UHGV virus genome: UHGV-0027971
Direction: 5' to 3' (one strand)
From: a virus
DNA length: 43,269 nucleotides
Numbering within the stretch: the first letter of the stretch is position 1; each line of letters opens with the position of its first letter. Of the stretch, positions 1,243-43,209 are shown in pieces. The translations under genes were made by a program, and so were the position numbers. The notes beneath the pieces were generated by a model. It did no database searches. It had not been told where the DNA came from and saw nothing but the letters and a program-made list of their open reading frames with translations.

Positions 1243-2433
1243 CTACTTACTAGTCCATTCATCAATCATATTCGCCCAATCTTGTAGCATCTCAGCCCTC
1301 TGCTCACGATATTCTGCCTTGTTATAAACAGCTCGTACCCCTTTTTGTTCATGGGCAAGGCTCTTCTCAATCCAGTCAGTATTGTACCCGGCCTCATGTA
1401 GCAAGGTGCTGGCTGTACGCCGTAAGTCATGGGGACCAAACTTAGGCAACAACTCCCCTTCTTTCTGAGCCAGGCGATACGTCAGTGTCAAAACCCGGTT
1501 TAAAGTAGCGCTACTCATTGGCGCATCGGAATCGTACCGCGAAGGAAGGATAAAATCAGAGCTACCGGCAAAGGTTTTGAGAGCAATCATAATATCCATT
1601 GCCTGTCTGGAAAGAAAAACCAAATGTGGATTACGTCGTTTCATCCTTTCCTTTGGTATCGTCCATAATGCCTCACTAAAATTGATCTCGTTCCAGGTTG
1701 CGTTAGTAAGCTCACTTTTACGTACCATCGTTAACAGCAAAAGTTTAACCGCTGCTCTGATTGATGGCGTCGTTCCTACCCGTTCCATGTACCGATACAT
1801 CAGACCAATTTCAACTGGCGTCAATGCCCTGTCTCGAGGCTCAAATTTCGCTATGCTTGCAGGCCGTACCAGATCAGCAGGATTCTCCACCTTCTGACCG
1901 CGCTCAATAGCCCAGCGATAGACTTGCAATACAATCTCTCTAGCGTGTACAGCTGTCGCTGGTGCCCCTCTCTCGACAATGTTATCGGTTAATGCGCGTA
2001 AGTCCTCATGTGTAATCTCACTAAGTTTCTGCTGGGCAAATTTTGACTTCAACTCCCTTTGATATACCGAACGCCGCATATCACGCGTCGATTCAGCCAT
2101 TTGATAACCGCGTAACCATTTCTCAGTCCACGCACCAAAAGTCTCCGCATCTTTAATACGCGCTTTATCTCTGGCTTTTTCCCTCGCAGGCGATATTCCA
2201 CTGGCAACCATTTTTTTGGCTTCATTGAGCCGTTCACGCGCTTCTGCAAGCGTGATCCCTCCAACACCATAGCGGCCAAAAGTAACAGTCTCCTGTCTTC
2301 CGTTTATTGAATAGTTATAACGAAATGAAATAGTTCCAGCCGGAGTGACCGCAACATACAGACCATCACGGTCATTAACTTTATAGAGTTTCTCCTTCGG
2401 CTTAAGGTGATGCAGCCTGGTGTCAGTCAACAT
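1243..2433 (-). CDS. int: tyrosine recombinase / integrase, P4-type (element 1)
   Basis: 396 aa; N-terminal MLTDTRLHHLKP..LYKVNDRDGLYV and C-terminal HDLRRTASTLLHEAGY..WIEKSLAH..GVRAVYNKAEY motifs typical of P4/CP4-57-like integrases; paralog of 41752..43002. Confidence 0.9.
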   Translation of the reverse strand: MLTDTRLHHLKPKEKLYKVNDRDGLYVAVTPAGTISFRYNYSINGRQETVTFGRYGVGGITLAEARERLNEAKKMVASGISPAREKARDKARIKDAETFGAWTEKWLRGYQMAESTRDMRRSVYQRELKSKFAQQKLSEITHEDLRALTDNIVERGAPATAVHAREIVLQVYRWAIERGQKVENPADLVRPASIAKFEPRDRALTPVEIGLMYRYMERVGTTPSIRAAVKLLLLTMVRKSELTNATWNEINFSEALWTIPKERMKRRNPHLVFLSRQAMDIMIALKTFAGSSDFILPSRYDSDAPMSSATLNRVLTLTYRLAQKEGELLPKFGPHDLRRTASTLLHEAGYNTDWIEKSLAHEQKGVRAVYNKAEYREQRAEMLQDWANMIDEWTSK

Positions 2434-4762: not shown

Positions 4763-4948
4763 CTATTCATCTTTGGTAACAGAGGCGCTATCAAACCAGT
4801 CTGTCGCTACCTCATCATCAACCGAATAAGTTATAACGTATTTCACTGGAGTATCTTTCATTACCGTATACCCGATTACCTCTCCGGCAATGCCTGGGAT
4901 ACCATTAACAGATACCGTAACCATTTGACCAATATTTATAATGCTCAT
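4763..4948 (-). CDS. hypothetical small protein downstream of the tailspike
   Basis: 61-aa ORF abutting the tailspike stop (ATGA overlap). Confidence 0.4.
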   Translation of the reverse strand: MSIINIGQMVTVSVNGIPGIAGEVIGYTVMKDTPVKYVITYSVDDEVATDWFDSASVTKDE

Positions 4949-7245
4949 GACGTCACCGTAAAATTAAATAATAATGAATCGGTAGAAGAAGCCAGCCATA
5001 AAGACTGAGTTTTATTTTTCGGAGCTTCAATCAAATCCATTGATGCTTTTGCAGAGCAATAAAACCCGTAATCTCCTGTTGCAGCTATTGAAATCTCAAC
5101 CAGATGATTAGCATTTATTGCAGCTGTGATAGAGGGAGTTGACGTAGTTTCAGCATCCCAGTTATCCCATTCGTGAGATAGTATCCTTGCGCCGGTAGCC
5201 CAGTTGTCATTGACAGTACCATTTGAGATCAGCACCACAGCCCTGATGCGAGAATATTTTTGCGTCGTCCTTGTTCTGAGGAACGCTGTAACATTAACAA
5301 TTGCAGCGTTAAATCCACCGACAACACCGAAAGTCCAGAGAGTTTTACTACTGTTGACCCCGGCACCGGATGCGACAGGAGGAAAATCTGTGGTTATTTT
5401 CCCAATACTCCCTGTATTAATGATTCTTGGGGCATATTTAAATTCGGCAGGGACCACGGTATTAGCCCCAAGAACAAATGCCATGGATGATGCCCTTAAT
5501 TTGTTGCCTGTTACGTTAGGATGGGTATCATCATTCATCCACCCTTTTGATACGGCGTTTTCATAAGTACCTAGGGTCTGCCTGTCATCAAAATAGTAAT
5601 AGCCATTATTCAAAGCAAAATTTCTCCTGGCTATCCTGTAACTCTCTACGGCACTAGCATATTTGGGGTTAGTCGTCTTACTTGTTTCCCCTGGTTCAAC
5701 TATTAGCGCAACCGACGATGATGGTTTTATCATATTGGTATATGTTATCAAATCCGCCTTAAACTGCTCAACAGTTCTCCCTTGCCCCATATCATTAGTT
5801 CCCGCATTAATAACAACTAAAGCAGGGTTTAATGCAGCTTTCCATTTCGAAATAAAAACAGAGTCCTGCGATACAAACTCATCAAGTCGCCTGCCGCCAC
5901 GTGCAATTGTTGCTGTTCTTATACCTCTTGGGTTTGGTGTATATATAAAATCAAGTGCAAAAATAACTACATTACCGGTAATTTCTGAAAGTGTGATGCT
6001 GGAGGCATTTGTCGCATCTCTGAATACAGAAATAACGCCAAGATCCAAATCGGCGTTACTGTTAACGCTAGTCACAGTGCCGCCTGCCGTTATATTAAAG
6101 CTACCACCACCTGATTGTTTTAAATAATACAAATTACACTTATCCCATGGCAATTTGGGATCAGCGCCAGCTTGCTCAGTACCACTTGCTGAAGGCCATT
6201 GAATACCTCTACCAGCAGGAGCATATTTTGCTGGGGTAGCATTCATCGGTAAATCTCGTAAACTGGTGAATGTTCCTAAAGCATAAAATGCCTGATCACC
6301 TTCTATCTGAAAGGCCGCTTGATCAAAAGCATAAAATCCAGGTCCACCATAATCAAATGATGAATGCAGAAGTATTTTCAGGTATCTAACATAATTGGTG
6401 TTACCTGCCCCCTCATTAAGTGAATCAATGCCAAACTGAATCAGGCCTCCGGTTTGTAAAAGATAAGCAAGTGGATTATTTTTAACATATGAATTTACAT
6501 CCATTCGATCTAGTGTTGCTCCTACCGTTGTTTCATGAAACCCTGACAAGTTAGCGCCTGTAGGTTTTGCAAGTTGGATCAACACATCAGAAGCGCTACC
6601 AGGAATGGCAGGGACAGGATTTGGTTCACCATAATCGTTGAAAGTGAAAACTGTATTTTTCCTTACGTCCACAGAAGGAAGAAAAGATATTTCATCTTCA
6701 GGTACTCTCACCGTCCTTTTAAACAAATTCTCAGAATGCTGATTATTACTTGAATCTCCGGCATCTACATAATTCTTTGTTGCAGCATCCTGTGCCTGTG
6801 ACGGGTCACGCAGATTACGAATGCGGTTGTTGAGTGCGTCGTAATAGCTCGCGATGAACGACGGCTTACGCAGCGCCAGGCGGAGAAAGCTGAAGCACTG
6901 CTGGATAAGCATGGTCAGCTTGTCGAATGCATCCTCATGCACCTCTGCGAAAAATTTCCCCTGGTTACGCAGATCAGTCTCCTGGGTAACAGGCAAGTCA
7001 CGTGAGATAGAGATTTGCCATCCGTTGGCCAGAGGTGACATCAACACAACGCTCCCACCTGAATAGCTTCCCGCCCCGGTAACTGAGTAATCGGTATCTA
7101 AAGTCAGAACTGTAATATTTTCGTTAAGGTCAGCGACCTGGACAGTGAGATCTGACTTCTTGAAGATGCGAAACGTGTACGGGAAAGATGTGGTAACGCC
7201 GTTCCCTGTGTAGTCGTTATGGTCGACTTCGGTTGAGACCGTCAT
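4945..7245 (-). CDS. tailspike/tail fibre protein with SGNH (GDSL-like) hydrolase domain
   Basis: 766 aa; N-terminus MTVSTEVDHNDYTGNGVTTSFPYTFRIFKKSDLTV typical of podovirus tail-fibre head-binding domains; C-terminal part has SGNH-like blocks (VVINAGTNDMG, NDDTHPN). Confidence 0.8.
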   Translation of the reverse strand: MTVSTEVDHNDYTGNGVTTSFPYTFRIFKKSDLTVQVADLNENITVLTLDTDYSVTGAGSYSGGSVVLMSPLANGWQISISRDLPVTQETDLRNQGKFFAEVHEDAFDKLTMLIQQCFSFLRLALRKPSFIASYYDALNNRIRNLRDPSQAQDAATKNYVDAGDSSNNQHSENLFKRTVRVPEDEISFLPSVDVRKNTVFTFNDYGEPNPVPAIPGSASDVLIQLAKPTGANLSGFHETTVGATLDRMDVNSYVKNNPLAYLLQTGGLIQFGIDSLNEGAGNTNYVRYLKILLHSSFDYGGPGFYAFDQAAFQIEGDQAFYALGTFTSLRDLPMNATPAKYAPAGRGIQWPSASGTEQAGADPKLPWDKCNLYYLKQSGGGSFNITAGGTVTSVNSNADLDLGVISVFRDATNASSITLSEITGNVVIFALDFIYTPNPRGIRTATIARGGRRLDEFVSQDSVFISKWKAALNPALVVINAGTNDMGQGRTVEQFKADLITYTNMIKPSSSVALIVEPGETSKTTNPKYASAVESYRIARRNFALNNGYYYFDDRQTLGTYENAVSKGWMNDDTHPNVTGNKLRASSMAFVLGANTVVPAEFKYAPRIINTGSIGKITTDFPPVASGAGVNSSKTLWTFGVVGGFNAAIVNVTAFLRTRTTQKYSRIRAVVLISNGTVNDNWATGARILSHEWDNWDAETTSTPSITAAINANHLVEISIAATGDYGFYCSAKASMDLIEAPKNKTQSLWLASSTDSLLFNFTVTS

Positions 7246-7330
7246 GTTAAATCTCCAGATAGTCGCAGCACCCGTTGCGCCGCATATCCGGTTATTTTAT
7301 TACCTGAAAAACCACATATGGATAGATAGA

Positions 7331-7346
7331 CTGTGAATTCGAACAG
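7331..7346 (+). promoter_or_regulatory. candidate second SOS-box-like site (CTGTGAATTCGAACAG)
   Basis: CTGT-N8-ACAG spacing, but the spacer is not the usual AT-rich sequence. Confidence 0.3.
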
Positions 7347-7401
7347 ATATTACCTTTCAGGTAATTTTCAAAACGTGCTGGATAGCAAATAAATTATTTG
7401 A

Positions 7402-7421
7402 TACTGTATAAATATACAGTT
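7402..7421 (+). promoter_or_regulatory. LexA (SOS) box TACTGTATAAATATACAGTT overlapping a promoter (-35 TTGATA at 7398..7403)
   Basis: Near-consensus CTGT-N8-ACAG with AT-rich spacer, 20 bp upstream of the 7441 start. Confidence 0.75.
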
Positions 7422-7440: not shown

Positions 7441-7698
7441 ATGCAGCAGTATCACTATCCACTGGAAGAGGGATTTACCGAAAGGATTCACACGCCGGGA
7501 GGCGTCAGGTCACTGGTGGAGGGATCGCACTTGATGAAATTACTCCGGGATCTCGATAAGGATGGATTTAATGTCGATGGCCCACTTGCCGAACTGACTG
7601 CACTGATTAACTACGTCACCAGCTCACAGATGTCTATGCGGGATCTGCAAACACATCTCGACTATTGTGCCGAACAATTACGAAAACAAACCCGGTAA
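7441..7698 (+). CDS. SOS-regulated small protein, stand-alone homolog of the shared antirepressor C-terminal module (Tum-like role inferred)
   Basis: 85 aa from ATG 7441 (RBS GGAGAAG; track start 7423 is a forced TTG). Aligns with the C-termini of the proteins at 9345, 11074 and 41064 (IH.P.GV..L.E.S.LM.LL...DG..V.G..AELT...Y......RD.QTH..Y). Confidence 0.6.
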   Translation: MQQYHYPLEEGFTERIHTPGGVRSLVEGSHLMKLLRDLDKDGFNVDGPLAELTALINYVTSSQMSMRDLQTHLDYCAEQLRKQTR

Positions 7699-8449: not shown

Positions 8450-8604
8450 TGCTTTTCCTCACAATAACATTACCTTAAAGGTAATATCTTGCTTTCAGGT
8501 GATCAAGCATTAAACTCCATCAACCAAATACGGTTGATTTTGATATTTATTCTCGCTTATCATTACCTTTGCGGTAAATTTACATCGCACTCCTCTTGTG
8601 CCAT

Positions 8605-8690
8605 AGTAATCAGGCACTGGCAAAATCCAGTGCCGGGATTGGCGTCCCGGATTACTAGTAGGCGCATACCACGCCAGACGTGGTTTTTTT
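8605..8690 (+). ncRNA. candidate structured small RNA or leader element ending in a rho-independent terminator
   Basis: Outer stem TAGTAATC/GATTACTA enclosing hairpins GGCACTGG-caaaat-CCAGTGCC and CCGGGA-ttggcg-TCCCGG, then terminator CCACG-ccaga-CGTGG + T7 (8669..8690). Function unknown. Confidence 0.3.
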
Positions 8691-8845
8691 ATGCGTATAG
8701 CACAGTCATATCCGAATTATGGTGGGCTGGGCAGGGGCACCGAAAGGTGCGCCGGTACCTACTAGGCCGGTACGCCAACCTTGTCCAGTTCACCACCAGC
8801 AATTGGCGTTGCGGTGGTAGGTAACTTACTAGTAGAGGTATCGCT

Positions 8846-9352
8846 ATGCCAGGCCAAAAAATCTCAAACGACGATCTGTATTGGTTAATTTCTAATTCTC
8901 CACTCCTTCTTATGCTAAGGCAAGAAAGTGCACCACTGGTCAGTGAATTGATTAGCTGTAGAAATAGAATGTGGGATGAAGGGGCAGATTTAGATACCAA
9001 TTTGTTTGATCATCTTATGCAACTAGCAGTCGATAACAAGGCAAAACTACGCTCTGAATACAACGCTTATCCAGAAATAGCAAAATACCTTAACGCTGAA
9101 ATACTTGGTGGACCAGGTCAACCAGACCTAAAAACAAAAGATGGTTACCCTGTTGAGGTGAAGGTAGATACTTTTTCTCCTTCAGCATTAAAACAATTAT
9201 TAAGGTATATGGATGCTTCTGGCGCAGATTTTGGTTTTGCTTGTGCAAAAACTCTTTCTGTAAAACTCCCTGAAAACATAAAGTTCATCCAGTTAGATTA
9301 TAAAGATAATTGCTATTTCGTCGTGAAAGATGGAGGCAATGAAAATGCGTAA
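8846..9352 (+). CDS. hypothetical protein (168 aa), possible PD-(D/E)xK-like motif
   Basis: ORF with RBS GAGG; sequence KDGYPVEVKVD resembles a D..E.K nuclease core but this is a weak by-eye guess; AT-rich. Confidence 0.5.
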   Translation: MPGQKISNDDLYWLISNSPLLLMLRQESAPLVSELISCRNRMWDEGADLDTNLFDHLMQLAVDNKAKLRSEYNAYPEIAKYLNAEILGGPGQPDLKTKDGYPVEVKVDTFSPSALKQLLRYMDASGADFGFACAKTLSVKLPENIKFIQLDYKDNCYFVVKDGGNENA

Positions 9353-10064
9353 TATAGCTATTGATAAGTTGCCGATAACAACTCATTGCAACATCCCTGT
9401 AATGACTACAGAAATGCTTGCTGATTTGTATGACACAGAACCCAAACTGATTCGTCAAAACTATCAACGAAATGCAGATCGATTCATTGAGGGAAAACAT
9501 TGTTTCAAGCTGATAGGCGAAGAATTACGAGCATTTAAGAACGAGTCCTCTCAAAGAGGTTTGCTTAATATTGCACCAAAAGTAAGTCATCTTTTCTTAT
9601 GGACCGCTCGCGGTGCAGCACGACATGCGAAAATTCTTGAGACTGAAAAAGCGTGGGAGGTCTTCGAAAAACTGGAAGATTGCTACTTCGACAGAAAACC
9701 CGCAAATGTCAGTGGAGATGTTCGTCTCTCAGGTGGAGCTGATTTATCAAAGGCCACTCAGGTAATTGAAAAATTCATGCCCGCCATTATGGAGGCGATC
9801 AAGCTGGAAGACAAAAAAGAATACAGCGCCCCACTGAAGCCCGGCTACCGCAGCCTGATTCACTCGCCGTCGGGTGTTCTCGGCCTGACGGAGCACTCAC
9901 TGCTGATGAATCTGCTGAATCAGTTGCAGGAAGACGGGCACGACGTATCGGGCGCGGCGGCGGAACTGACCACCATGTTCTGCTACATCGTCGGTGTGAG
10001 TAAATGCCTGCGTGATATCCAGACGCACGCGGAGTACATCAACGACAAGGCAGGGTTCTTCTGA
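9345..10064 (+). CDS. antirepressor-like protein (ORF6N-type N-terminal domain + shared C-terminal module)
   Basis: Start taken at ATG 9345, 8 nt after GGAGG (track start 9330); C-terminal ~95 aa near-identical to those of 11074..12012 and 41064..41720. Confidence 0.7.
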   Translation: MRNIAIDKLPITTHCNIPVMTTEMLADLYDTEPKLIRQNYQRNADRFIEGKHCFKLIGEELRAFKNESSQRGLLNIAPKVSHLFLWTARGAARHAKILETEKAWEVFEKLEDCYFDRKPANVSGDVRLSGGADLSKATQVIEKFMPAIMEAIKLEDKKEYSAPLKPGYRSLIHSPSGVLGLTEHSLLMNLLNQLQEDGHDVSGAAAELTTMFCYIVGVSKCLRDIQTHAEYINDKAGFF

Positions 10065-11073: not shown

Positions 11074-12012
11074 TCAGAAGAATCCTGCCTTGTCGTTGAT
11101 GTACTCCGCGTGGGTCTGGATATCACGCAGGCATTTGCTCACACCAACGATGTAGCAGAACATGGTGGTCAGCTCCGCCGCCGCGCCCGATACATCGTGC
11201 CCGTCTTCCTGCAACTGGTTCAGCAAATTCATCAGCAGTGAGTTCTCCGTCAGGCCGAGAACACCAGACGGCGAGTGAATCAGGCTGCGGTAGCCGGGCT
11301 TCAGCGGATAACCATAACATTTTGTCTGTGTTTTAATTGCCTCACGAAGCGCATCTAACATCTTGACTGCCACTTCATCATTCTCTGATGCAGATCCAGC
11401 AGGGAGATACTCCCCTTCAAGCGGAACCCGAGCAACAAGAGACAACGCTTCGGCGAATTGATCTTCATCAATTTCTTTGTACGAACAGCCAAAATGAGAT
11501 TTCAGTGACGACCACATGGTGATCATCGCCTTAGCCTGTTTTTCTTTTGGCAGAGACTGACCGCGACTCATGACGAGTTGTTTAATGGCTTCCTGCTGTT
11601 CAGTGGTGATTTTACCCGGCAACGCCTTTTTAGCTTTGCGTGGGTTAACTACATGGCCTTTAGTCCAGTAATCGTAGAGCACATCGTCACACTCTTCCTG
11701 ATACTGGATTACCTTGTCGCGGATTTCAGGGCGTACTTTGTTTGGACTGATGCTGTTCAACCAAGCTGCCAATTTTCGTAAAGCCATACAAATCATGGCT
11801 TGCACCCCACCGGCAGAAGGTATGGTGATTTCCACCATACCCTTCGAGAAGCGTTGAGAAATCTTCTTATGTTGAGATTTCCAGTCTAGCCCCATTCCCT
11901 CAACGATAGGTTTCATTGGGGTATACGGTTCACCGTTGTGATTGACAACATAAAGCTCTGCGCCGTGGAATGGCACGTTGATAGTAGATACCGCTGTTGC
12001 TATACTCGTCAT
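11074..12012 (-). CDS. ant: antirepressor (AntA-type N-terminal domain + shared C-terminal module)
   Basis: 312 aa; N-terminal region resembles AntA/P22 Ant-type domains; directly downstream of the arc-like gene as in P22 immI. Confidence 0.8.
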   Translation of the reverse strand: MTSIATAVSTINVPFHGAELYVVNHNGEPYTPMKPIVEGMGLDWKSQHKKISQRFSKGMVEITIPSAGGVQAMICMALRKLAAWLNSISPNKVRPEIRDKVIQYQEECDDVLYDYWTKGHVVNPRKAKKALPGKITTEQQEAIKQLVMSRGQSLPKEKQAKAMITMWSSLKSHFGCSYKEIDEDQFAEALSLVARVPLEGEYLPAGSASENDEVAVKMLDALREAIKTQTKCYGYPLKPGYRSLIHSPSGVLGLTENSLLMNLLNQLQEDGHDVSGAAAELTTMFCYIVGVSKCLRDIQTHAEYINDKAGFF

Positions 12013-12087
12013 GTCGTTAATTCCTATACGTAGTTTTACGATACTGAAGCCCTGACGGTCTGGCCACCGTTGGGCTTCGCTGTTTTA
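12013..12087 (+). ncRNA. candidate sar-like antisense RNA opposite the ant ribosome-binding region
   Basis: Plus-strand promoter inside the ant 5' end (-35 TTGATA 11978..11983, 17-bp spacer, -10 TATACT 12001..12006) and plus-strand terminator in the arc-ant gap (GAAGCCC..ACGGT-ctggcc-ACCGT..GGGCTTC + GCTGTTTTA, 12046..12087); predicted ~75 nt. Confidence 0.45.
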
Positions 12088-12252
12088 TGCCACGCTATTC
12101 TTCTCACCAGTGAGTCCATACACTTTCCTCAGCTGATAGATAATCTCTGTATTGAACTTTCGGCATTCTTTTTCGCCATTTCTTTCAATAGCTAACTTCA
12201 CATCGTCCGGAAAACGAACTCGTCGTTGACACATCTCTTTTGCTTTTTGCAT
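12085..12252 (-). CDS. arc: Arc-like ribbon-helix-helix repressor
   Basis: 55 aa from ATG 12252 with strong RBS AAGGAG (track start 12288 is a forced TTG); size and beta-strand region (RRVRFPDDVKLAIERNGE) fit P22 Arc. Confidence 0.7.
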   Translation of the reverse strand: MQKAKEMCQRRVRFPDDVKLAIERNGEKECRKFNTEIIYQLRKVYGLTGEKNSVA

Positions 12253-12266
12253 TTCATATCTCCTTA

Positions 12267-12281
12267 GCCCCACGGTGGGGC
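12267..12281. promoter_or_regulatory. Mnt-operator-like palindrome GCCCCACGGTGGGGC upstream of the arc-like gene
   Basis: Perfect 15-bp palindrome with CCACGGTGG core as I recall for the P22 mnt operator; sits just upstream of the arc RBS. Confidence 0.6.
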
Positions 12282-12372
12282 AAAACAATTGTCACACCGT
12301 GCGTCATTGATGTCAAGCACACGGTGAGGCATACTTCAATCATTGCAAGTAACTCAATATTTGGTGAAGAAC

Positions 12373-12804
12373 ATGAGCAGAGAAGATCCACAACTAAGGA
12401 TCAGACTTCCCGTTGAAGTAAAAGAAAAAATAGAAATTTCTGCAAAAGCCAATAAGCGATCAATGAACGCTGAAATAGTACAACGTCTTGACACCAGCTT
12501 TCTGAAAGATATTCATGAAGATGACGTAATTTCTGCTTATGAAGCAAAAATTATTGCAAACAATGCACGGCATGAAATATCAAATATTATTTTCAAAAGA
12601 ACCTTTAATGAAATTAATAAGAAAATAACACTTGGACATACAAGTTTTTATATAAACCTTAATGACCTTGAACTGGAATCACTTGCAGATAATGATTACC
12701 AGATCATCTTTGAAAAAACATTTAATAAGCTCAATGAACTAGGTTACATCATCTGTGAAAACTCATGGGATGCAGATGGTTTTGGAATTGAAATACCTGA
12801 ATAG
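12373..12804 (+). CDS. mnt: Mnt-like ribbon-helix-helix repressor with extended C-terminal region
   Basis: N-terminus MSREDPQLRIRLPVEVKEKIEISAKANKRSMNAEIVQRL matches my recollection of P22 Mnt (MARDDPHFNFRMPMEVREKLKFRAEANGRSMNSELLQIV); divergent from arc-ant; start taken at ATG 12373. Confidence 0.75.
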   Translation: MSREDPQLRIRLPVEVKEKIEISAKANKRSMNAEIVQRLDTSFLKDIHEDDVISAYEAKIIANNARHEISNIIFKRTFNEINKKITLGHTSFYINLNDLELESLADNDYQIIFEKTFNKLNELGYIICENSWDADGFGIEIPE

Positions 12805-19767: not shown

Positions 19768-20231
19768 TATTTTCTCTCCATGTGAAATCTGTGGAAATTA
19801 AGACCAAGAGCACCATAAGGCGCGGCTTCTTCAAGCCTGAATCCAAGCCAGTGCAGCCATGCTTTGGCAACATGGTTTCGCTCGTCGACGTAGTTTTCCA
19901 GGCGCGGATAAACTGCCAGCATCTGCTGCAATACAGGGCGGCAGTGGCGAAGAAATGTCTTCTGATATTTTTCAATACGGCTGGTTCCTACCAGCCAGGG
20001 CGTACCATTGCCACCGATCATTGACGCCGGAGATACACCAAACATGGTTACCAGTTCTCCGTTCGCAAATCCTGACCAGGCCATAGTCGCAGTACGCAGA
20101 CCAACACGCAGCGCATCTTCGGTAGTCATCAGTGATACCGCATACAGTTCGTCAATATCAGCCTGACGAACATCCGGCAAAATCATCTGAAGATGCTCTT
20201 CGGTTGCGGGAATAATTTGAACATCGATCAT
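19767..20231 (-). CDS. virion protein (T7 gp13-position)
   Basis: 154 aa ORF between the tail tubular B-like and gp14-like genes; synteny only. Confidence 0.5.
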   Translation of the reverse strand: MIDVQIIPATEEHLQMILPDVRQADIDELYAVSLMTTEDALRVGLRTATMAWSGFANGELVTMFGVSPASMIGGNGTPWLVGTSRIEKYQKTFLRHCRPVLQQMLAVYPRLENYVDERNHVAKAWLHWLGFRLEEAAPYGALGLNFHRFHMERK

Positions 20232-22702
20232 CAGAATCCCCCAACAGTAAGGCGAGGAATAACGGCAAGAACAGACAGCGGAAACGGATCAAGCTGACGG
20301 ATTTTTACACGTCCGTTTTTGCCCCAGTTACTGTCCAGTTTCACTTCTACTTTTCCGGTAGCATCATCAACAGGATCATCGTAGAACTCGAATTCACGCT
20401 GTGGATATTCGTACCATTTACCGCCGGGCGTAGTCGCCCAGATGCCGCGACTGGCATTCACAACCAGAGTAACGAAGGGGATCACCTGTTTTTTGTCCAG
20501 CAGCGTTTCCTGTCCGTTAATGTTGATATCCAGTGTTTCGAATTCAGCAGTTATTGGCAGGCCGATGTGCACAACAGCCCCCGGAGATTCCAGCGTGACG
20601 GCACCTCCGGAAACAACTTTCTGTGGTTCCACGTTCGCATCAGAGAGAATGTTTACGGTCTGGCCTTCAAGATGAGACAGGCCTCCAAATGTCCGGCGCG
20701 CCATCTGCCAGTTCGTGGTGGCCACATTCCTGAGGGATGGCGGGACGTTCCTGTTAGCACGAACCACTACAGCGGTATTGCTGGTTACAGAAATAATGTC
20801 GCAACGTAATTCTTTTGACACCTCATCACCAGTATCAGGATCAGTTCCGGTATAAGGGAACTGTAGTTGCGCGCCGACATCACTACTGGTGAAGTACGCA
20901 CCACCAGAAACACTGATTGTATATTCCGCGCGGTAATCCCATTCACCAGAACCACCAGTGATGGTCATCGTTCTGTCAGACGTATTTCTTCCATCATAGC
21001 TAAGGCCAGAATCAACAAAGAAAGCATCTTCATCGCTGGTAAATAAACGGCTGGACAGTCGCTCGATGTATCTCACTGTTTGCCCGTTAACGGTTCGGTT
21101 AACGACGAAATACACCGCATCTTCATTTCCTTCGCTGATACTGCATGTGCTTTCATATTTTCCGGTACTGGATTGTGGTGCCCATGCAAAAACCTGCTGA
21201 TCACGCAAATAGGTCATCACCAGTAATTTACCGTCATCACGAATGCAGAAGGCGCTGGAGTAAGGGACAATAGAGAAGCACCAGTCAACAATGCTGTGCT
21301 TCTGAAAAAGATGATTGGCAAGGATGGTCAGGTCGTTCCCCTGATAGCCGTCAACATCGAATGAGTAGGCCAGATCACGGACAACGCTGCCTTTCTCCTG
21401 GACGAACAGAGCAATATTCGCCACGGCAATTGGCGGGACGTTGCTTGAGCCATTTGATCCCTGAGAGCTGAATGCAAATGATGATGGGGTTAACACTTTG
21501 TTCTGGTCGCCGGTGATGACGTACTCACCTCCGGAAGTCAGCGCCACCAGCGAACCAACATCAATCAGGTGACGGATCTCATTAACCTGACGCCCGGCAT
21601 AGGTGTAGATAATTCTGTCGTCATCCTGCGTAGGATTGCTTTTGCCAAAATCCTTATAATCCCCGGTACGGCTGGCCCAGATAGTCTGAGGAAACGCAGT
21701 CGATGCGGCGAAGTAAAGACGTTGTTGATAATAAACAACAGTGCCAGGATAACCATTAACACTGTTCCAGGCATATTTAGCCCATTTATAGCTGGCATTA
21801 TCCTCGCCAACTACCTGCGAAGGGATATAGGAAATCACCTCGGCAGTTGCAGTAGTTCCATTTGCAGCAGTGATACGGGCAATGCCAAAACCACTGTGCA
21901 GATATTCCCACTCAATGCCAGTATCATCATCACCGGATCCGCCCCAGCCATCCCATGATGTGCCTTCTGTATGCGAAGGGCGCAAAGTACCTGTTTTGCC
22001 TGCTTTAACGGCGCGATAGTAGTTACTGTCTGCTCGGCGAATATCGCCAATCGACGTACTCTTACTGGTTTCCCATACCGGCACAGAATCCACTGCAGGC
22101 TGTTCCAGATAGAACAATTTGCCTACCTGCTCCGCGCCAAAAATAGAGGCGCTTGCCGTTAGCGTAATTGTCCCGGTGCTGGCGCTGGCATAAACCGTCA
22201 CTGACTCGTCAATATTGATATCTTCAAATGGCCCGTTCTTCGTTACCACATCAACCAGTTGCCAGTTGTCATGCGCATAGCGGCGCAACTCTTTCGGCGG
22301 GTATGCCGGATGAACCAGCGTAAGCACGTCTGCGCTTTGCGTGAATTTAATTCGGAACAGATCGGCTTCAGTATATGGCGTGGAAATTTCATAAATAACA
22401 TTGCTGCTGTTCAGCACCAACGCACCATCTTTGATAACGCGCATGTACTGGTGTCCGAACTCCAGAGCATAAGTCTGAACCGTCGAGAACTGGAACGGGA
22501 TCAGGCGGCATTTCCGATTTGGATATTTGGCGGCACCGACAAAACGCGTACCAGGTCGATTCTCAACGCCGCCATACTGCCGCACGATAAAGTTATCGCA
22601 CTTGCGCAATGCCACCTGGTACTTCGCCATGTCAATACGCCCGTACAACGACGGTCCAATCTCACCACCGGCAAAGCTGGGCTGGATCCAACTGATAGCC
22701 AT
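20231..22702 (-). CDS. tail tubular protein B-like (nozzle)
   Basis: 823 aa; N-terminus MAISWIQPSFAGGEIGPSLYGR resembles the T7 gp12 family; follows the tubular A-like gene. Confidence 0.65.
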   Translation of the reverse strand: MAISWIQPSFAGGEIGPSLYGRIDMAKYQVALRKCDNFIVRQYGGVENRPGTRFVGAAKYPNRKCRLIPFQFSTVQTYALEFGHQYMRVIKDGALVLNSSNVIYEISTPYTEADLFRIKFTQSADVLTLVHPAYPPKELRRYAHDNWQLVDVVTKNGPFEDINIDESVTVYASASTGTITLTASASIFGAEQVGKLFYLEQPAVDSVPVWETSKSTSIGDIRRADSNYYRAVKAGKTGTLRPSHTEGTSWDGWGGSGDDDTGIEWEYLHSGFGIARITAANGTTATAEVISYIPSQVVGEDNASYKWAKYAWNSVNGYPGTVVYYQQRLYFAASTAFPQTIWASRTGDYKDFGKSNPTQDDDRIIYTYAGRQVNEIRHLIDVGSLVALTSGGEYVITGDQNKVLTPSSFAFSSQGSNGSSNVPPIAVANIALFVQEKGSVVRDLAYSFDVDGYQGNDLTILANHLFQKHSIVDWCFSIVPYSSAFCIRDDGKLLVMTYLRDQQVFAWAPQSSTGKYESTCSISEGNEDAVYFVVNRTVNGQTVRYIERLSSRLFTSDEDAFFVDSGLSYDGRNTSDRTMTITGGSGEWDYRAEYTISVSGGAYFTSSDVGAQLQFPYTGTDPDTGDEVSKELRCDIISVTSNTAVVVRANRNVPPSLRNVATTNWQMARRTFGGLSHLEGQTVNILSDANVEPQKVVSGGAVTLESPGAVVHIGLPITAEFETLDININGQETLLDKKQVIPFVTLVVNASRGIWATTPGGKWYEYPQREFEFYDDPVDDATGKVEVKLDSNWGKNGRVKIRQLDPFPLSVLAVIPRLTVGGF

Positions 22703-24464: not shown

Positions 24465-24515
24465 CTTCTTTCTCCATTAGTGGGCCTGTTGCGGCCCACA
24501 GGTTAATAACAGGCG

Positions 24516-28835: not shown

Positions 28836-28912
28836 GTGGCATTAGCTCAGTTGGACAGAGCAACCGCCTTCTAAGCGGTTGGTCGCAGGTTCGAATCCTG
28901 CATGCCACGCCA
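28836..28912 (+). tRNA. tRNA-Arg (anticodon UCU)
   Basis: Cloverleaf by eye: acceptor GTGGCAT/ATGCCAC, D-arm TAGCTCAGTTGGACAGAGCA, anticodon stem ACCGC/GCGGT with loop CTTCTAA, T-arm GCAGGTTCGAATCCTGC, discriminator G and CCA. Confidence 0.85.
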
Positions 28913-29111
28913 GAATCACGCCTAAGGACCGTGATGCCAGAAGTTCCAGGTGCTTGGCGGTGATGGTTTCCCTTGAAGGACTATCACCGCCCTTTTTACA
29001 GCAGGACGCCATTGCGATGACTTCATGCTGTAAACCAGTACAGCCACGGAAGGCATAACTCATTGCTTCCAGTTCGCCCGGTTCGCCGGGCATTTTTTTA
29101 AGGTAAAAATC

Positions 29112-33791: not shown

Positions 33792-33908
33792 GATTTACCC
33801 CTTAGGTAATTAAAAACCACATAAGACATGAAATCAATAGATGCTAGAACATTTTATTACCCATCAGGTAATCATGTGGACGTAAAAAAATGCGCTATCG
33901 CGCTGGTA

Positions 33909-34691
33909 TTACTTGATAAATCCTGCCGCCTTTCCCCGCCTGTATTCCTCCATCAGCCACTGCGCCGGTGTTATTCCCCCAAGGGTGGCGGCGTTAGGCA
34001 TGCACCCGAAACTTCGCCCTGGTGGATGGTAAACGTCTCTCCCTGTGTCCGGAGGTGTACTCATGGGTTCTGGCTTTGCCTGTATGCTGATCACCGGATC
34101 GGGTATCTGCTGTCCGGAAGCCACCTTTTTCGCCCAATCATCGAGCAGCCTGCGCGCGTGTTTCTCAACCTCAATCTCGCTAAGCTGGCGCTGATACATT
34201 GCACGGCGGGTATCACATACGACCCAGTACATAACCGGATGTCGCCACGGGAATCTTTCGGGACCACCAGGATATAAACTTTTTTCCTTGCTGTACCGGT
34301 GAAACTCCGCCATCACATCGTCAATGGTGACGCCAAGAACCATCTTGCTGTCTTTACACCACTTGATAAATTGCCCTGGCGACGGCCAGAACGGAGATTC
34401 ACTGGCGCGGGCGTGGCGCATACCAGCGTTAACCTGTTCCATTGTTGTGATCCCATTCTCCAGAAACGCAAGCATCCATTGTTTTCGAAATTCGTTTAGC
34501 TTTCCTTGCTCGCTGATAGCAGCGATGCTGCCTGGAAATGCAGCCTGTAACTGGACAAACATTTCGTTGAAAATTCTTGCAACCTGCTCCTTCTTTGCCC
34601 TTTCATCGTCAGCAGAAGCAACCGCCGTCGAGTGGTCATGCCCACCACGAAAGCGATCGTACTCATTAAGAAGTTCTGGAGTTGATTTCAT
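33909..34691 (-). CDS. replication protein P-like (helicase loader)
   Basis: Strong resemblance to lambda P as I recall it (WMLAFLENGITTMEQVNAGMRHA..PSPGQFIKWC vs lambda WVLAFRENGITTMEQVNAGMRVA..PSPGQFVAWC); start taken at MKSTPELL. Confidence 0.8.
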   Translation of the reverse strand: MKSTPELLNEYDRFRGGHDHSTAVASADDERAKKEQVARIFNEMFVQLQAAFPGSIAAISEQGKLNEFRKQWMLAFLENGITTMEQVNAGMRHARASESPFWPSPGQFIKWCKDSKMVLGVTIDDVMAEFHRYSKEKSLYPGGPERFPWRHPVMYWVVCDTRRAMYQRQLSEIEVEKHARRLLDDWAKKVASGQQIPDPVISIQAKPEPMSTPPDTGRDVYHPPGRSFGCMPNAATLGGITPAQWLMEEYRRGKAAGFIK

Positions 34692-35686: not shown

Positions 35687-35787
35687 TTTTTCCGCCCCTT
35701 TTTGTTATTGATATTGGCTATTTTGCACAATTGGAAAATTTGATCAACCAGATTTGGTTTTTTATTACCTTTGAGGTACGAATAGAT

Positions 35788-35812
35788 ATGAAAAGACCGC
35801 CGGATGGCGGTC
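35788..35812 (-). terminator. tR1-like terminator immediately after the cro-like gene
   Basis: GACCGCC-ggat-GGCGGTC hairpin followed on the minus strand by TTTTCAT; a TTACCTTTGAGGTAC site follows at 35765..35779. Confidence 0.55.
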
Positions 35813-35834
35813 TACAGAGGGTTGTGGCTGGATA

Positions 35835-36065
35835 TCATGAGTAGAAGAAGTATGCCAGTTCTGCTTTTGAGCGCAGCCATTGTCTTGTTTTACAGGCTTT
35901 AAAAAGCCCATTCATCAATACCTTACCTGGCATTTTGCGCTTACCTGTTAAGTGAGTCTGGATATAGTGACTCGTCGTTCCGGCTTCCTGTGCGAAGGCT
36001 TCACGCTCATCCGGAGTAAGTGCAAGCCAGTGCTTTTTGAAATCGAAATGTCCGTTATCGCTCAT
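35835..36065 (-). CDS. Cro-like small regulator (first gene of the minus-strand early operon)
   Basis: 76 aa, divergent from the repressor gene and followed by the replication genes; assignment by position and size. Confidence 0.5.
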   Translation of the reverse strand: MSDNGHFDFKKHWLALTPDEREAFAQEAGTTSHYIQTHLTGKRKMPGKVLMNGLFKACKTRQWLRSKAELAYFFYS

Positions 36066-36101
36066 AGCTATTGCCTGATATTTATTTCAGATAATAAATA
36101 T

Positions 36102-36164
36102 TCACCCATAAGGTAACAAAAATCAAGGATAGTTACCTATGAGGTGCATTTACCTGATGGGTAA
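36102..36164. promoter_or_regulatory. operator cluster of the immunity switch (three TTACC-N5-GGTAA-type sites)
   Basis: TCACCCATAAGGTAA (36102..36116), TTACCTATGAGGTGC (36133..36147), TTACCTGATGGGTAA (36150..36164) in the 154-bp gap between divergent regulator genes. Confidence 0.65.
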
Positions 36165-36219
36165 TATTGCTTTAAATTGAATCATCTACTGATTCATATA
36201 TGAGGCGATTTTCCAGAAA

Positions 36220-36804
36220 ATGAAAAGTATCCAGGACGTCCGCAGGCAAAATCTCAACGACTTGATCGACCGTGAATTCAATGGTGTTCAGACGCGGATG
36301 GCAGAAAAACTTGGAACTCAGGCAAATCTGGTAAACCGCTGGGCTCTTGGCAAGAAGGTTATCGGCGACCAGGTTGCGCGAAAAATTGAAGCTGCCGCCA
36401 ATAAACCCCGTAACTGGCTTGATATCGATCGCTCGCTTTCTCAGGAAGGTTTTCAGCCTGTCGGCCCAAGCGACATTGGCCAGCTGGCGGCTCACAACCT
36501 GGAACGCTGGATGAGCGAAAGCCGCGACCTTTCAACACAGGGAAAACTTCACCGCGCATCCGGCGTAGCCCAGGTGACAATCAGCCGCCTGTTAAACAAT
36601 GAGGTCAGCGTTTCCATTTCCACCCTGGAGAATGTTGCATCCGCATTCGGGCGTCACGGCTATGAATTACTGATTCACCCGCACGACCCTGCGACCATCA
36701 ACTATGATCGCTCGCGCTACGCATTGTTACCCGAAACCGAGAAAGCAAAGATCGAAAGTTACATTGAATTTGTCATCAACCAGAACGAAAAAAGCAAACA
36801 ATAA
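36220..36804 (+). CDS. putative prophage repressor with two HTH domains and no recognisable autocleavage domain
   Basis: 194 aa; HTH-like segments VQTRMAEKLGTQANLVNRWALGKK and ASGVAQVTISRLLNNE; no LexA/CI-like peptidase motif seen; occupies the cI position. Confidence 0.6.
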   Translation: MKSIQDVRRQNLNDLIDREFNGVQTRMAEKLGTQANLVNRWALGKKVIGDQVARKIEAAANKPRNWLDIDRSLSQEGFQPVGPSDIGQLAAHNLERWMSESRDLSTQGKLHRASGVAQVTISRLLNNEVSVSISTLENVASAFGRHGYELLIHPHDPATINYDRSRYALLPETEKAKIESYIEFVINQNEKSKQ

Positions 36805-36825
36805 AACTATAGTTTTCAGCAAGTA

Positions 36826-36848
36826 AGCCGCCTCATGGCGGCTTTTTT
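36826..36848 (+). terminator. rho-independent terminator after the repressor gene
   Basis: AGCCGCC-tcat-GGCGGCT followed by TTTTTT. Confidence 0.75.
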
Positions 36849-36861
36849 ATTGCCAGATAGA

Positions 36862-36938
36862 TTACCTTACGGGTAATTTTTTTAACTCATATCTATTGAC
36901 ACCAAACCAAATAAGCATAATTATTACCTCAACGGTAA
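36862..36938 (+). promoter_or_regulatory. pL-like promoter flanked by two operator sites
   Basis: -35 TTGACA (36895..36900), AT-rich -10 region near 36917..36923; TTACCTTACGGGTAA (36862..36876) upstream and TTACCTCAACGGTAA (36924..36938) just downstream. Confidence 0.55.
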
Positions 36939-36957: not shown

Positions 36958-37110
36958 ATGCAGTGGAAAATCATCAACGGTTGGTACTGCGTTACTGCAT
37001 GCGGATTCATGAGCTGGAAGTTCCGCACCTTACAGGAAGGCATTAAGTGGGCTTTCGTCAGCAAAGAAGCTCGCGATGTGGCCAACGATAACGAGATATG
37101 GGAGGGCTGA
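36958..37110 (+). CDS. hypothetical small protein (50 aa), first gene of the plus-strand early operon
   Basis: ATG preceded by SD GAGG at 9-nt spacing; below the ORF-track size cut-off; W/C-rich. Confidence 0.45.
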   Translation: MQWKIINGWYCVTACGFMSWKFRTLQEGIKWAFVSKEARDVANDNEIWEG

Positions 37111-40739: not shown

Positions 40740-41011
40740 AATCACGCCTGACGAATCGCGATTATCTCGCTATTGGTATTGCAGAGATTGCTGGACTCAG
40801 TGGCGCATGATTTGACAATGCCGCCAGAGCTATCGCATACTGACCGCACTAGAACTTCAAAGCGGTCACCCGCACCCGATAGCTTTGCGGCTTTTTTATG
40901 CCTGCAATTTGGCATAGTCACATCCGTACAAAGGTCGGGTGGAGAGGCGTAATACAATACCCAAAAGGGGAATATGCCCGGAGCGTCTTTGAAGGCTCTA
41001 GTTGACACCCG

Positions 41012-41034
41012 ATCACCAGCTACTAACTGGTGAT
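41012..41034. promoter_or_regulatory. palindrome ATCACCAG-N7-CTGGTGAT next to -35-like TTGACA upstream of the third antirepressor gene
   Basis: 8-bp inverted half-sites; differs from both the LexA box and the TTACC-N5-GGTAA motif. Confidence 0.4.
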
Positions 41035-41751: not shown

Positions 41752-43002
41752 TTATTCCCCCGCCATCCACTTCTCAAACTTCGACGGGGAGAACGGAATC
41801 AGATCCGTATGCTCCCCGTTAATCCAGGAATCAATCATATCGGACCACTGCTGCAACATGTAGGCGCGCTGTCTGGCGTATTCCGCTTTGTTATATACGG
41901 CGCGCACACCTTTCTGCTCATGTGCCAGAGCCTTTTCAATCCAGTCTGAAGGATAACCAGCCTCATGCAACAACGTACTGGCTGTACGGCGCATATCGTG
42001 TACGGTGAAGTCCTGAATATGCTCACCATCTTCATTTATTATTTTCACCGTTCTGTCGATCAGAGAGTTCAGCGCGGCATTAGATAATGGCTTCCGGAAA
42101 TTGTAACGACCAGGAACCAGATATTCACTTCCACCAGCGCACATCTGCAACCCGACCAATATATCCTGTGCCTGTTTAGGCAGGTAAATAACGTGCGCCC
42201 GGCTTCCCTTCATACGGTCTGAAGGAATTGTCCATGTCCATTTTTTAAAATCTATTTCATCCCACGTTGCATTGGTGAATTCGCCTTTACGAACCATAGT
42301 GATAAGCACCAGCTTTAAAGCCATTTTCATAGTGCCCATAGCGCCAATGGCATCCAACGTGCGGAAGAACAGGCCAATTTCTTCTGGTGTCAGTGTTCGC
42401 TCTCGTGGTTTAAATATGGCGATAGACGAAGGTTTAATGTCAGCCGCAGGATTAAACAAACCATGACCACGGTCATTGGCGTGACGGTATACGCTGCTGA
42501 TGATCTCCCGGGCCTGCACTGCTGTTGCCCGGCCACCGCGTTCGACAATCCGGTCACACAAATCACGAACCATCGATGTGGTAATTTCAGCCATCATTTT
42601 GTTGCCAAGAACCGGAAGTATGTCACGGTCGATCACCGCCTGCTTCATTGCGCGGGTACTTTCAGCCAGGATGACGTGTTTCATATAACTGTCGGTATGT
42701 ACCGCAAATGTCTCGGCACCACGAATCTTTTTGATACCGTCACGTTTAGCCGCAGCCGGCGACTGGCCTGCTTTAAGCAGCTTCTTTGCAGCAATCAGTT
42801 CTTCCCGCGCTTCTGCCAGGCTGATACCGTCACGCCCATACTGCCCGATTACCAGTGTTTCGCGGCGACCGTTGATACGGTAGTCATAGCGAAACGAGAC
42901 CGTGCCTGACGTAAGCACAGCTACATACAGCCCGTCACGATCGGAGACCTTGTACAGTTTGTCCTGCGGCTTGAGGTTTTTTAATTTTGTATCGGTAAGC
43001 AC
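41752..43002 (-). CDS. int: tyrosine recombinase / integrase, P4-type (prophage)
   Basis: 416 aa; C-terminal HDMRRTASTLLHEAGY..WIEKALAHEQKGVRAVYNKAEY; adjacent to the right att copy. Confidence 0.9.
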   Translation of the reverse strand: MLTDTKLKNLKPQDKLYKVSDRDGLYVAVLTSGTVSFRYDYRINGRRETLVIGQYGRDGISLAEAREELIAAKKLLKAGQSPAAAKRDGIKKIRGAETFAVHTDSYMKHVILAESTRAMKQAVIDRDILPVLGNKMMAEITTSMVRDLCDRIVERGGRATAVQAREIISSVYRHANDRGHGLFNPAADIKPSSIAIFKPRERTLTPEEIGLFFRTLDAIGAMGTMKMALKLVLITMVRKGEFTNATWDEIDFKKWTWTIPSDRMKGSRAHVIYLPKQAQDILVGLQMCAGGSEYLVPGRYNFRKPLSNAALNSLIDRTVKIINEDGEHIQDFTVHDMRRTASTLLHEAGYPSDWIEKALAHEQKGVRAVYNKAEYARQRAYMLQQWSDMIDSWINGEHTDLIPFSPSKFEKWMAGE

Positions 43003-43192: not shown

Positions 43193-43209
43193 AATCATTC
43201 CCACTCAAT
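43193..43209. repeat. att core direct repeat, right copy (AATCATTCCCACTCAAT) overlapping the guaA stop
   Basis: Identical to 2739..2755. Confidence 0.75.

Follow-up and report, generated by a model that had tools for sequence, protein, structure and literature searches.

A repressor without an autocleavage domain and a LexA box-preceded antirepressor gene point to an SPC32H-type immunity switch in a phiV10-like prophage

Here, we describe the immunity region of UHGV virus genome UHGV-0027971, a stretch of 43,269 nucleotides that was analysed at its full length and is referred to as the window in the following. The element contained in the window is an integrated prophage belonging to the phiV10/epsilon15-type podoviruses (genus Uetakevirus, epsilon15 group). 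Our analysis indicates that its immunity region very probably is a switch of the Rep/Ant/LexA kind known from Salmonella phage SPC32H, in which the repressor, that is the 194-aa protein Rep, is neutralised by a small antirepressor, Ant, whose synthesis is under control of LexA. The mechanism has already been published for the genus Uetakevirus; the system is known and the switch itself is not new.

The rep gene and a divergently oriented cro-like gene enclose a gap of 154 bp (36066..36219), precisely as the original prediction had it, and the region comprises the following features:

35835..36065, (-) strand: cro-like gene, open reading frame (ORF) of 76 aa, with which the rightward-type (replication) operon begins
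36119..36091, (-) strand: pR-like promoter TTGTTA-17-TATTAT, from the promoter scan, overlapping the operator at 36102-36116
36102..36116: operator of the right operator region (OR), TCACCcataaGGTAA, one mismatch; the equivalent SPC32H site lies at 34437-34451 of the SPC32H record
36133..36147: OR operator TTACCtatgaGGTGC, two mismatches; 17 bp centre-to-centre to the next operator, as in SPC32H (34390/34407)
36150..36164: OR operator TTACCtgatgGGTAA, perfect, from the motif scan
36220..36804, (+) strand: rep, ORF of 194 aa, divergent from the cro-like gene
36825..36853, (+) strand: intrinsic terminator 3' of rep, 8-bp GC-rich stem at 36825-36844 followed by TTTTTTATT
36862..36876: operator of the left operator region (OL), perfect; precedes the -35 element of pL and keeps this place in the aligned cassettes
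36896..36924, (+) strand: pL-like promoter TTGACA-17-AATTAT, matching at 10 of 12 positions in the promoter scan
36924..36938: OL operator, perfect; overlaps the -10 end as well as the start site, and its centre lies 62 bp from that of the operator at 36862
36958..37110, (+) strand: gene for a 50-aa protein at the head of the pL-type operon, like epsilon15 gp37 (PHROG 898, E=1.9e-38), with RecE/RecT-type genes next

The domain architecture of Rep agrees with what the original prediction had claimed, namely two helix-turn-helix (HTH)-like segments and no S24 peptidase-like C-terminal domain. The Pfam profile search placed HTH_3 in two stretches, at residues ~21-61, which also match the YdaS-type HTH, and at residues 106-147, the latter providing the best match. 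Peptidase_S24 was detected neither in Pfam, even at E<=1, nor in NCBIfam, and the translation of 194 aa contains no Ala-Gly or Cys-Gly dipeptide and no cysteine at all. Rep does not, on this evidence, belong to the autocleaving S24 repressors, as peptidase domain and cleavage site are both lacking. Comparison with the sequences in the PDB using phmmer returned the SPC32H repressor 5D50_A (E=3.5e-42, Rep residues 1-190), and residues 89-190 additionally matched its separately crystallised C-terminal fragment 5D4Z (E=3.6e-20). Thus, homology to SPC32H Rep covers residues 1-190 of 194, leaving no room for an autoprotease domain. In BLASTP, both proteins are 43% identical (E=1e-53). By homology, Rep is a two-domain HTH protein and an orthologue of SPC32H Rep, with an N-terminal HTH that would bind DNA and a C-terminal HTH-like domain that would serve oligomerisation and Ant binding. 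By analogy with the 5D4Z fragment (residues 92-198 of the SPC32H protein), this C-terminal segment is probably not a second DNA reader. Within the phiV10 group, Rep is strongly conserved (99-100% identity; 99.5% to phiV10 gp40 and to ZX5 ORF21), and the ZX5 protein has been examined experimentally: overexpression of ORF21 abolished free phage and lowered the mRNAs of holin and endolysin by >99.9% (PMC9782041).

The presumptive binding site of Rep is a 15-bp palindrome, TTACC-N5-GGTAA. In the window, 11 perfect copies were observed where 0.01 are expected, and 45 copies with at most two mismatches where 13 are expected, and the presence of three such sites inside 154 bp is therefore far above chance. 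The three palindromic operators that had been predicted for the gap are indeed present as copies of this motif, although just one of them, at 36150-36164, is perfect. Downstream of rep, the predicted strong terminator was borne out by RNA folding (-19 kcal/mol, z = -3.66), and the phiV10 record annotates a terminator at the same place. It is followed by the pL-like promoter, which is flanked by two operators as had been proposed, in the order operator, 19 bp, -35 element, 17 bp, -10 element overlapping the second operator. The same operator/promoter/operator cassette occurs a second time at 33795..33871 on the (-) strand, downstream of the replication genes, with operators at 33795-33809 and 33857-33871, again 62 bp apart. 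An alignment of six copies of the cassette from three genomes is internally free of gaps, which are confined to the ragged ends. A spacing of 62 bp would fit one Rep tetramer bridging the two sites of a pair.

Assignment of the Cro role to the 76-aa protein relies on gene position and on a match to PHROG 35, 'transcriptional repressor' (E=5.6e-13). Pfam and NCBIfam gave no match, and the sole match in the PDB, to an immunity repressor, is weak (E=0.43). The protein is 76% identical to SPC32H_042 and to epsilon15 gp39, and the stretch AGTTSHYIQ-HLT is invariant across five phages. Directly after the cro-like gene there is an intrinsic terminator at 35794-35813 on the (-) strand, annotated likewise in phiV10, and then a one-mismatch operator at 35765-35779. 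Read-through, antitermination or a second promoter are candidate routes by which transcription could pass this terminator into the replication genes.

The second key component, the small antirepressor gene, is located 29 kb away from rep. The original prediction had favoured a LexA-controlled antirepressor as the most plausible route of induction, and this view gains support from the following elements:

7350..7364: perfect Rep operator in the gap that separates ant from the divergent tailspike gene; conserved in 7 of 7 aligned genomes
7402..7421: LexA (SOS) box TACTGTATAAATATACAGTT, 20 bp upstream of the ant start codon, matching the consensus at 18 of 20 positions
7441..7698, (+) strand: ant, small antirepressor of 85 aa, assigned by homology to SPC32H Ant

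The 85-aa protein is 88% identical to SPC32H Ant and matches PDB entry 5D50_E, 'Anti-repressor protein' (E=5.6e-47); searches of Pfam and NCBIfam assigned it to no family. In the records of phiV10 (20543..20800) and ZX5 (2089..2346) it is labelled 'hypothetical protein'. The tailspike ORF (4945..7245) and ant point away from each other, and for the operator in between the epsilon15 record annotates a counterpart, a repressor binding site at 19895-19911. Apart from the LexA box upstream of ant, the window contains no near-consensus SOS box, and shuffled sequences contained 0 such sites. To assess its conservation, the region upstream of ant was aligned for seven phages, i.e. the window prophage, phiV10, Tyrion, SPC32H, SPC32N, epsilon15 and Klebsiella phage BUCT711. 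All seven share the same order of elements, namely an ATTACC half-site, the full Rep operator, TGCTGGATAG, the LexA box and then the ribosome-binding site and ant, the last two in those five sequences that extend to the start codon. BUCT711 carries TTCTGGAAAA in place of TGCTGGATAG and ATGT instead of CTGT as first half of the LexA box. In SPC32N, a variant with deregulated induction, the LexA box of ant differs from that of SPC32H by a change of ACAG to AAAG. This agrees with the work of Kim and Ryu from 2013, who reportedly found that mutation of the LexA box renders Ant constitutive.

Three further sites of the exact form CTGT-N8-ACAG were considered and set aside. The one at 7331-7346 is missing from the six aligned relatives and is probably due to chance or of recent origin; the one at 29028-29043 lies inside the phiV10p04 coding sequence in phiV10; and the one at 24486-24501, which has a GC-rich spacer, was dismissed by inspection alone. 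When one mismatch was allowed, the count in the LexA-motif scan equalled chance expectation. Near the tailspike start, the alignment contains in addition a half-site-like element, TATTACC(Y)NNNAAACC at 7298-7312, which is conserved in 7 of 7 genomes and may serve as Rep half-site or as a site for a late activator.

Based on these data, induction of the prophage can be pictured as follows. Rep would bind the 15-bp operators, as a tetramer if it behaves like its homologue, and would thereby silence the promoter on the cro side, that of the pL type and other operator-carrying intergenic regions of the prophage. As Rep has no S24 autoprotease, RecA* would be unable to cleave it. Upon DNA damage, self-cleavage of LexA would derepress ant, as shown in SPC32H, and in analogy to that phage a tetramer of the 85-aa Ant would bind the C-terminal domains of Rep and take the Rep tetramer apart. 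The operators would then be freed and lytic transcription could begin, again following the course of events in SPC32H. Published work provides the background to this scheme: prophages of the SPC32H type use a LexA-controlled antirepressor (review PMC7380047, citing Kim & Ryu 2013); on DNA, SPC32H Rep is a tetramer, which is broken when tetrameric Ant binds two Rep dimers (PMC9638917); and prophages of the phiV10 species were induced 21- and 47-fold by microcin Mcc1229, a DNA-damaging bacteriocin (bioRxiv 10.64898/2026.05.26.727859).

The likeness to SPC32H (PDB 5D50, 5D4Z) extends to genus, gene order and the operator half-sites TTACC/GGTAA. In both phages, OR consists of three operators with spacings of 30-31 and 17 bp, pL is embedded in an operator/promoter/operator cassette with a spacing of 62 bp, and a LexA box and a Rep operator are located upstream of ant. 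Everything in the SPC32H switch that can be looked for in a DNA sequence was found, that is a full-length Rep homologue, a small Ant encoded next to the tailspike gene, the LexA box and the arrangement of the operators. There are also differences: OL comprises two operators in the window as compared to three in SPC32H, two large antirepressor modules with an Ant domain are present in the window prophage and absent from SPC32H, and Rep has diverged while the Cro-like protein, Ant and the operators have not. Across five Rep orthologues, NLVNRW in the recognition helix of the N-terminal HTH does not vary. Divergence is uneven, with identities of 43% for Rep, 76% for the Cro-like protein and 88% for Ant, and the window prophage, SPC32H and Tyrion share one operator consensus. 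This suggests that the lineages of E. coli and Salmonella may still share DNA-binding specificity and sensitivity to Ant.

The operators are not confined to the immunity region. Further perfect copies are found at 7350, 8470, 8563, 10885, 28499, 31618, 33795 and 33857, and outside OR copies with one mismatch are located at 4876 (upstream of the lysis operon), 10986, 31600, 35765 (after the cro terminator) and 43045 (upstream of int). They accompany most of the intergenic regions that bear promoters. Besides the ant/tailspike gap, these are regions next to terS, int, the portal and lysis operons and the cargo modules. SPC32H and Tyrion have operators at corresponding places, namely in the ant/tailspike gap, 3' of the replication genes and in front of terS, int and the portal and lysis operons. 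In the RefSeq record of epsilon15, 'protein_bind: repressor' features are entered at OL, in front of terS and gp3, in the gap between gp19 (ant) and the tail-fibre gene, and 3' of the replication genes. Rep would hence appear to act on the whole genome and not at OL and OR alone, a property already known from epsilon15.

Other known systems resemble the window prophage to different degrees. The epsilon15 repressor gp38 is an orthologue of Rep with 43% identity, and its annotated binding sites fall where operators occur in the window, whereas the phage differs in its Salmonella host and in having a single Ant, gp19, which is annotated as hypothetical. Phages phiV10, ZX5, TL-2011b and HEMP4 share the attachment (att) core at the 3'-end of guaA with the window prophage but differ in the cargo located between ant and the genes for the virion, of which TL-2011b shares 66%. 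Gifsy-1, Gifsy-3 and Fels-2 (Lemire et al. 2011, PMC3121763) and Tum of coliphage 186 (Shearwin et al. 1998) likewise combine a non-cleavable repressor with a small antirepressor that is preceded by an SOS box and encoded at a distance from the immunity region (review PMC7380047). In these cases the likeness is one of logic. Disassembly of a tetramer via the C-terminal domain of the repressor sets the SPC32H-type mechanism apart. With the lambda CI, P22 C2 and LexA-type repressors, the locus has in common the three operators between divergently oriented genes for repressor and Cro, the succession of repressor gene, terminator and pL/OL, and an N-terminal domain of the HTH_3/XRE type. It differs from them in that Rep has neither S24 domain nor Ala-Gly site and instead ends in a second HTH-like fold, and from the lambda type also in that the operators spread beyond OL and OR.

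Between ant and the virion genes, the prophage carries two larger genes for antirepressors together with putative regulatory elements:

8614-8690: isrK RNA, Rfam 68.1 bits (gathering score 50), upstream of ORF 8846..9352 and the ORF6N antirepressor gene
8715-8800: C4 antisense RNA, Rfam 76.7 bits (gathering score 45), likewise upstream of both genes
9330..10064, (+) strand: ORF6N-type antirepressor, with an ORF6N N-terminal domain
11074..12012, (-) strand: P22_AR_N-type antirepressor, with a P22_AR_N N-terminal domain (E=2.5e-45)
12014-12081: sar RNA, Rfam 45.2 bits, barely above the gathering score of 43
12085..12252, (-) strand: small Arc-like ORF upstream of the P22-type ant, weak Arc match (E=0.11)
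12343..12804, (+) strand: Arc/Mnt-like gene, Arc domain (E=1.2e-14), divergent from the P22-type ant

Both proteins end in a nearly identical domain of ~85 aa that is homologous to small Ant (43% identity over 74 aa, E=2e-16; 25 invariant columns); in the protein encoded at 11074..12012 it takes the place of P22_AR_C, which is absent. The same domain is found behind Bro-N in ZX5 ORF4, where it is 85% identical, and in Tyrion gp20. Upon overexpression of ZX5 ORF4, the lysogen titre dropped a thousand-fold, from 10^9 to 10^6; the authors regard only the Bro-N protein as the anti-repressor, and its homology to small Ant goes unremarked in their paper (PMC9782041). Among 50,697 phage records, full-length Rep is encoded in 36 and the Ant domain in 35, and all of these 35 also encode Rep. 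As the domain is confined to phages encoding Rep, it may represent a Rep-specific module. The stretch 8534..10064 has a promoter-like site at 8534-8563, which abuts the operator at 8563 and is flanked by the operators 8470 and 8563. Its predicted layout, in which C4 and isrK RNAs precede a small ORF and an antirepressor gene, resembles immI of P1 and the isrK-orf45-anrP locus of Gifsy-1, and the stretch 11074..12804 is comparable to immI of P22 in that it combines the N-terminal domain of P22 Ant with Arc/Mnt-type regulators and a sar RNA.

These genes give rise to the alternative that deserves most attention, that is that Rep is inactivated mainly or also by the ORF6N-type or the P22_AR_N-type antirepressor, which would result in SOS-independent induction or in anti-immunity upon superinfection. 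One of them would be controlled by the isrK and C4 antisense RNAs and the other by Mnt, Arc and sar, and at least the ORF6N module appears to be repressed by Rep. We consider this possible, if somewhat doubtful. The Ant-like C-terminal domain, its restriction to Rep-encoding genomes, the drop in lysogen titre caused by ZX5 ORF4, the adjoining isrK, C4 and sar RNAs and the operators flanking the promoter-like site at 8534-8563 are all in its favour. However, neither gene has a LexA box nearby, so that SOS induction would not be explained by them, and the phages of the epsilon15/SPC32H group, which have one place for an Ant domain per record and no large antirepressors, are inducible nonetheless. 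The immI modules of P1 and P22 act mainly upon superinfection, and by analogy the same may hold for the modules in the window. Involvement of the large antirepressors would complement a switch operated by LexA and small Ant more than it would exclude it.

The two remaining alternatives can be given little weight. Cleavage or degradation of Rep after DNA damage, be it by a cryptic autoprotease or by a partner metalloprotease of the COG2856/IrrE type, is highly improbable. Such cleavage of XRE-family repressors by partner proteases has a general precedent in DdrO/IrrE, and this is its sole support. Against it stand the missing S24 match, the missing Ala-Gly and Cys-Gly dipeptides, the full coverage of Rep by the fold of SPC32H Rep and the lack of an adjacent protease gene, as rep is directly followed by the terminator and pL. 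Moreover, SPC32H Rep was reportedly not cleaved in the 2013 study of Kim and Ryu. Even less credible is the assumption that another gene, for instance the Mnt/Arc-like one at 12343..12804, encodes the maintenance repressor and that the 194-aa protein is accessory. The window does encode other DNA-binding regulators, namely the Arc-like proteins of 12343..12804 and 12085..12252, but phiV10, ZX5 and SPC32H have no Arc/Mnt-like genes, and the palindrome of the immunity region recurs beside most intergenic regions of the prophage that bear promoters. In addition, the 99.5% identical ORF21 of ZX5 silences lytic genes, and the orthologue of Rep is annotated as repressor in SPC32H and epsilon15, in the latter together with its binding sites.

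No feature of the window contradicts a Rep/Ant/LexA switch. Some points nevertheless weigh against it. The sigma-70 scan detected no consensus promoter for ant or for rep; TGGATA-17-TACTGT, which is conserved upstream of ant and was read by eye from the seven-genome alignment, is a candidate promoter. Rep is only 43% identical to the characterised protein, so that binding of Ant to Rep in this lineage is a prediction by homology, and our account of the SPC32H mechanism draws on secondary sources. Finally, the two further antirepressors of the prophage could also inactivate Rep.

As to the prophage itself, the DNA of its immunity region is 97-99% identical to that of Escherichia phages HEMP4, ZX5, TL-2011b and phiV10 in nucleotide comparison. 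For ZX5, a 17-bp att core and integration at the 3'-end of guaA have been reported (PMC9782041). This core, ATTGAGTGGGAATGATT, is present in the window as direct repeats at 2739-2755 and 43193-43209, and therefore the window holds a complete integrated prophage, with ~40.5 kb between the att cores. The att-bounded prophage includes the integrase gene:

41752..43002: integrase gene int

The prophage type is common: of 5426 complete E. coli genomes, 540 (~10%) carry its immunity region at >=95% identity. Two RNA genes of the prophage are mentioned for completeness. A tRNA-Arg(TCT) gene is located at 28836-28912 on the (+) strand, and a tRNA-Arg is also found in SPC32H. A match to the Rfam family sRNA-Xcc1 (40933-41022, (+) strand; 62.9 bits, gathering score 53) lies in the early-left region near methylase and PerC-like genes.

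Taken together, the value of our findings is chiefly one of annotation. In the E. coli RefSeq matches listed, rep of this prophage type is labelled 'helix-turn-helix domain-containing protein', and our analysis links it, along with the 'hypothetical' ant, to the solved Rep-Ant complex of SPC32H. This link explains why prophages of the phiV10 type are SOS-inducible without a cleavable repressor. For the switch itself there is little conceptual gain, as the mechanism has been published for the genus. The large antirepressors lead to a further, tentative proposal, which falls short of being the likelier outcome and which we did not find described in the literature searched. That is, the Ant-like domain of ~80-85 aa may be a Rep-specific 'warhead' that was grafted onto three generic antirepressor scaffolds (Bro-N, ORF6N and P22_AR_N), and in this prophage three independently controlled inputs, i.e. 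LexA/SOS via stand-alone Ant, isrK/C4 and Mnt/Arc/sar, may act on one non-cleavable repressor. As part of the same tentative proposal, the LexA/SOS input would serve induction, and the isrK/C4 and Mnt/Arc/sar inputs would serve anti-immunity. If true, three Ant-domain proteins converging on one repressor would amount to multi-input control of prophage induction, and the system would provide an example of repressor-specificity domains being swapped between antirepressor scaffolds.

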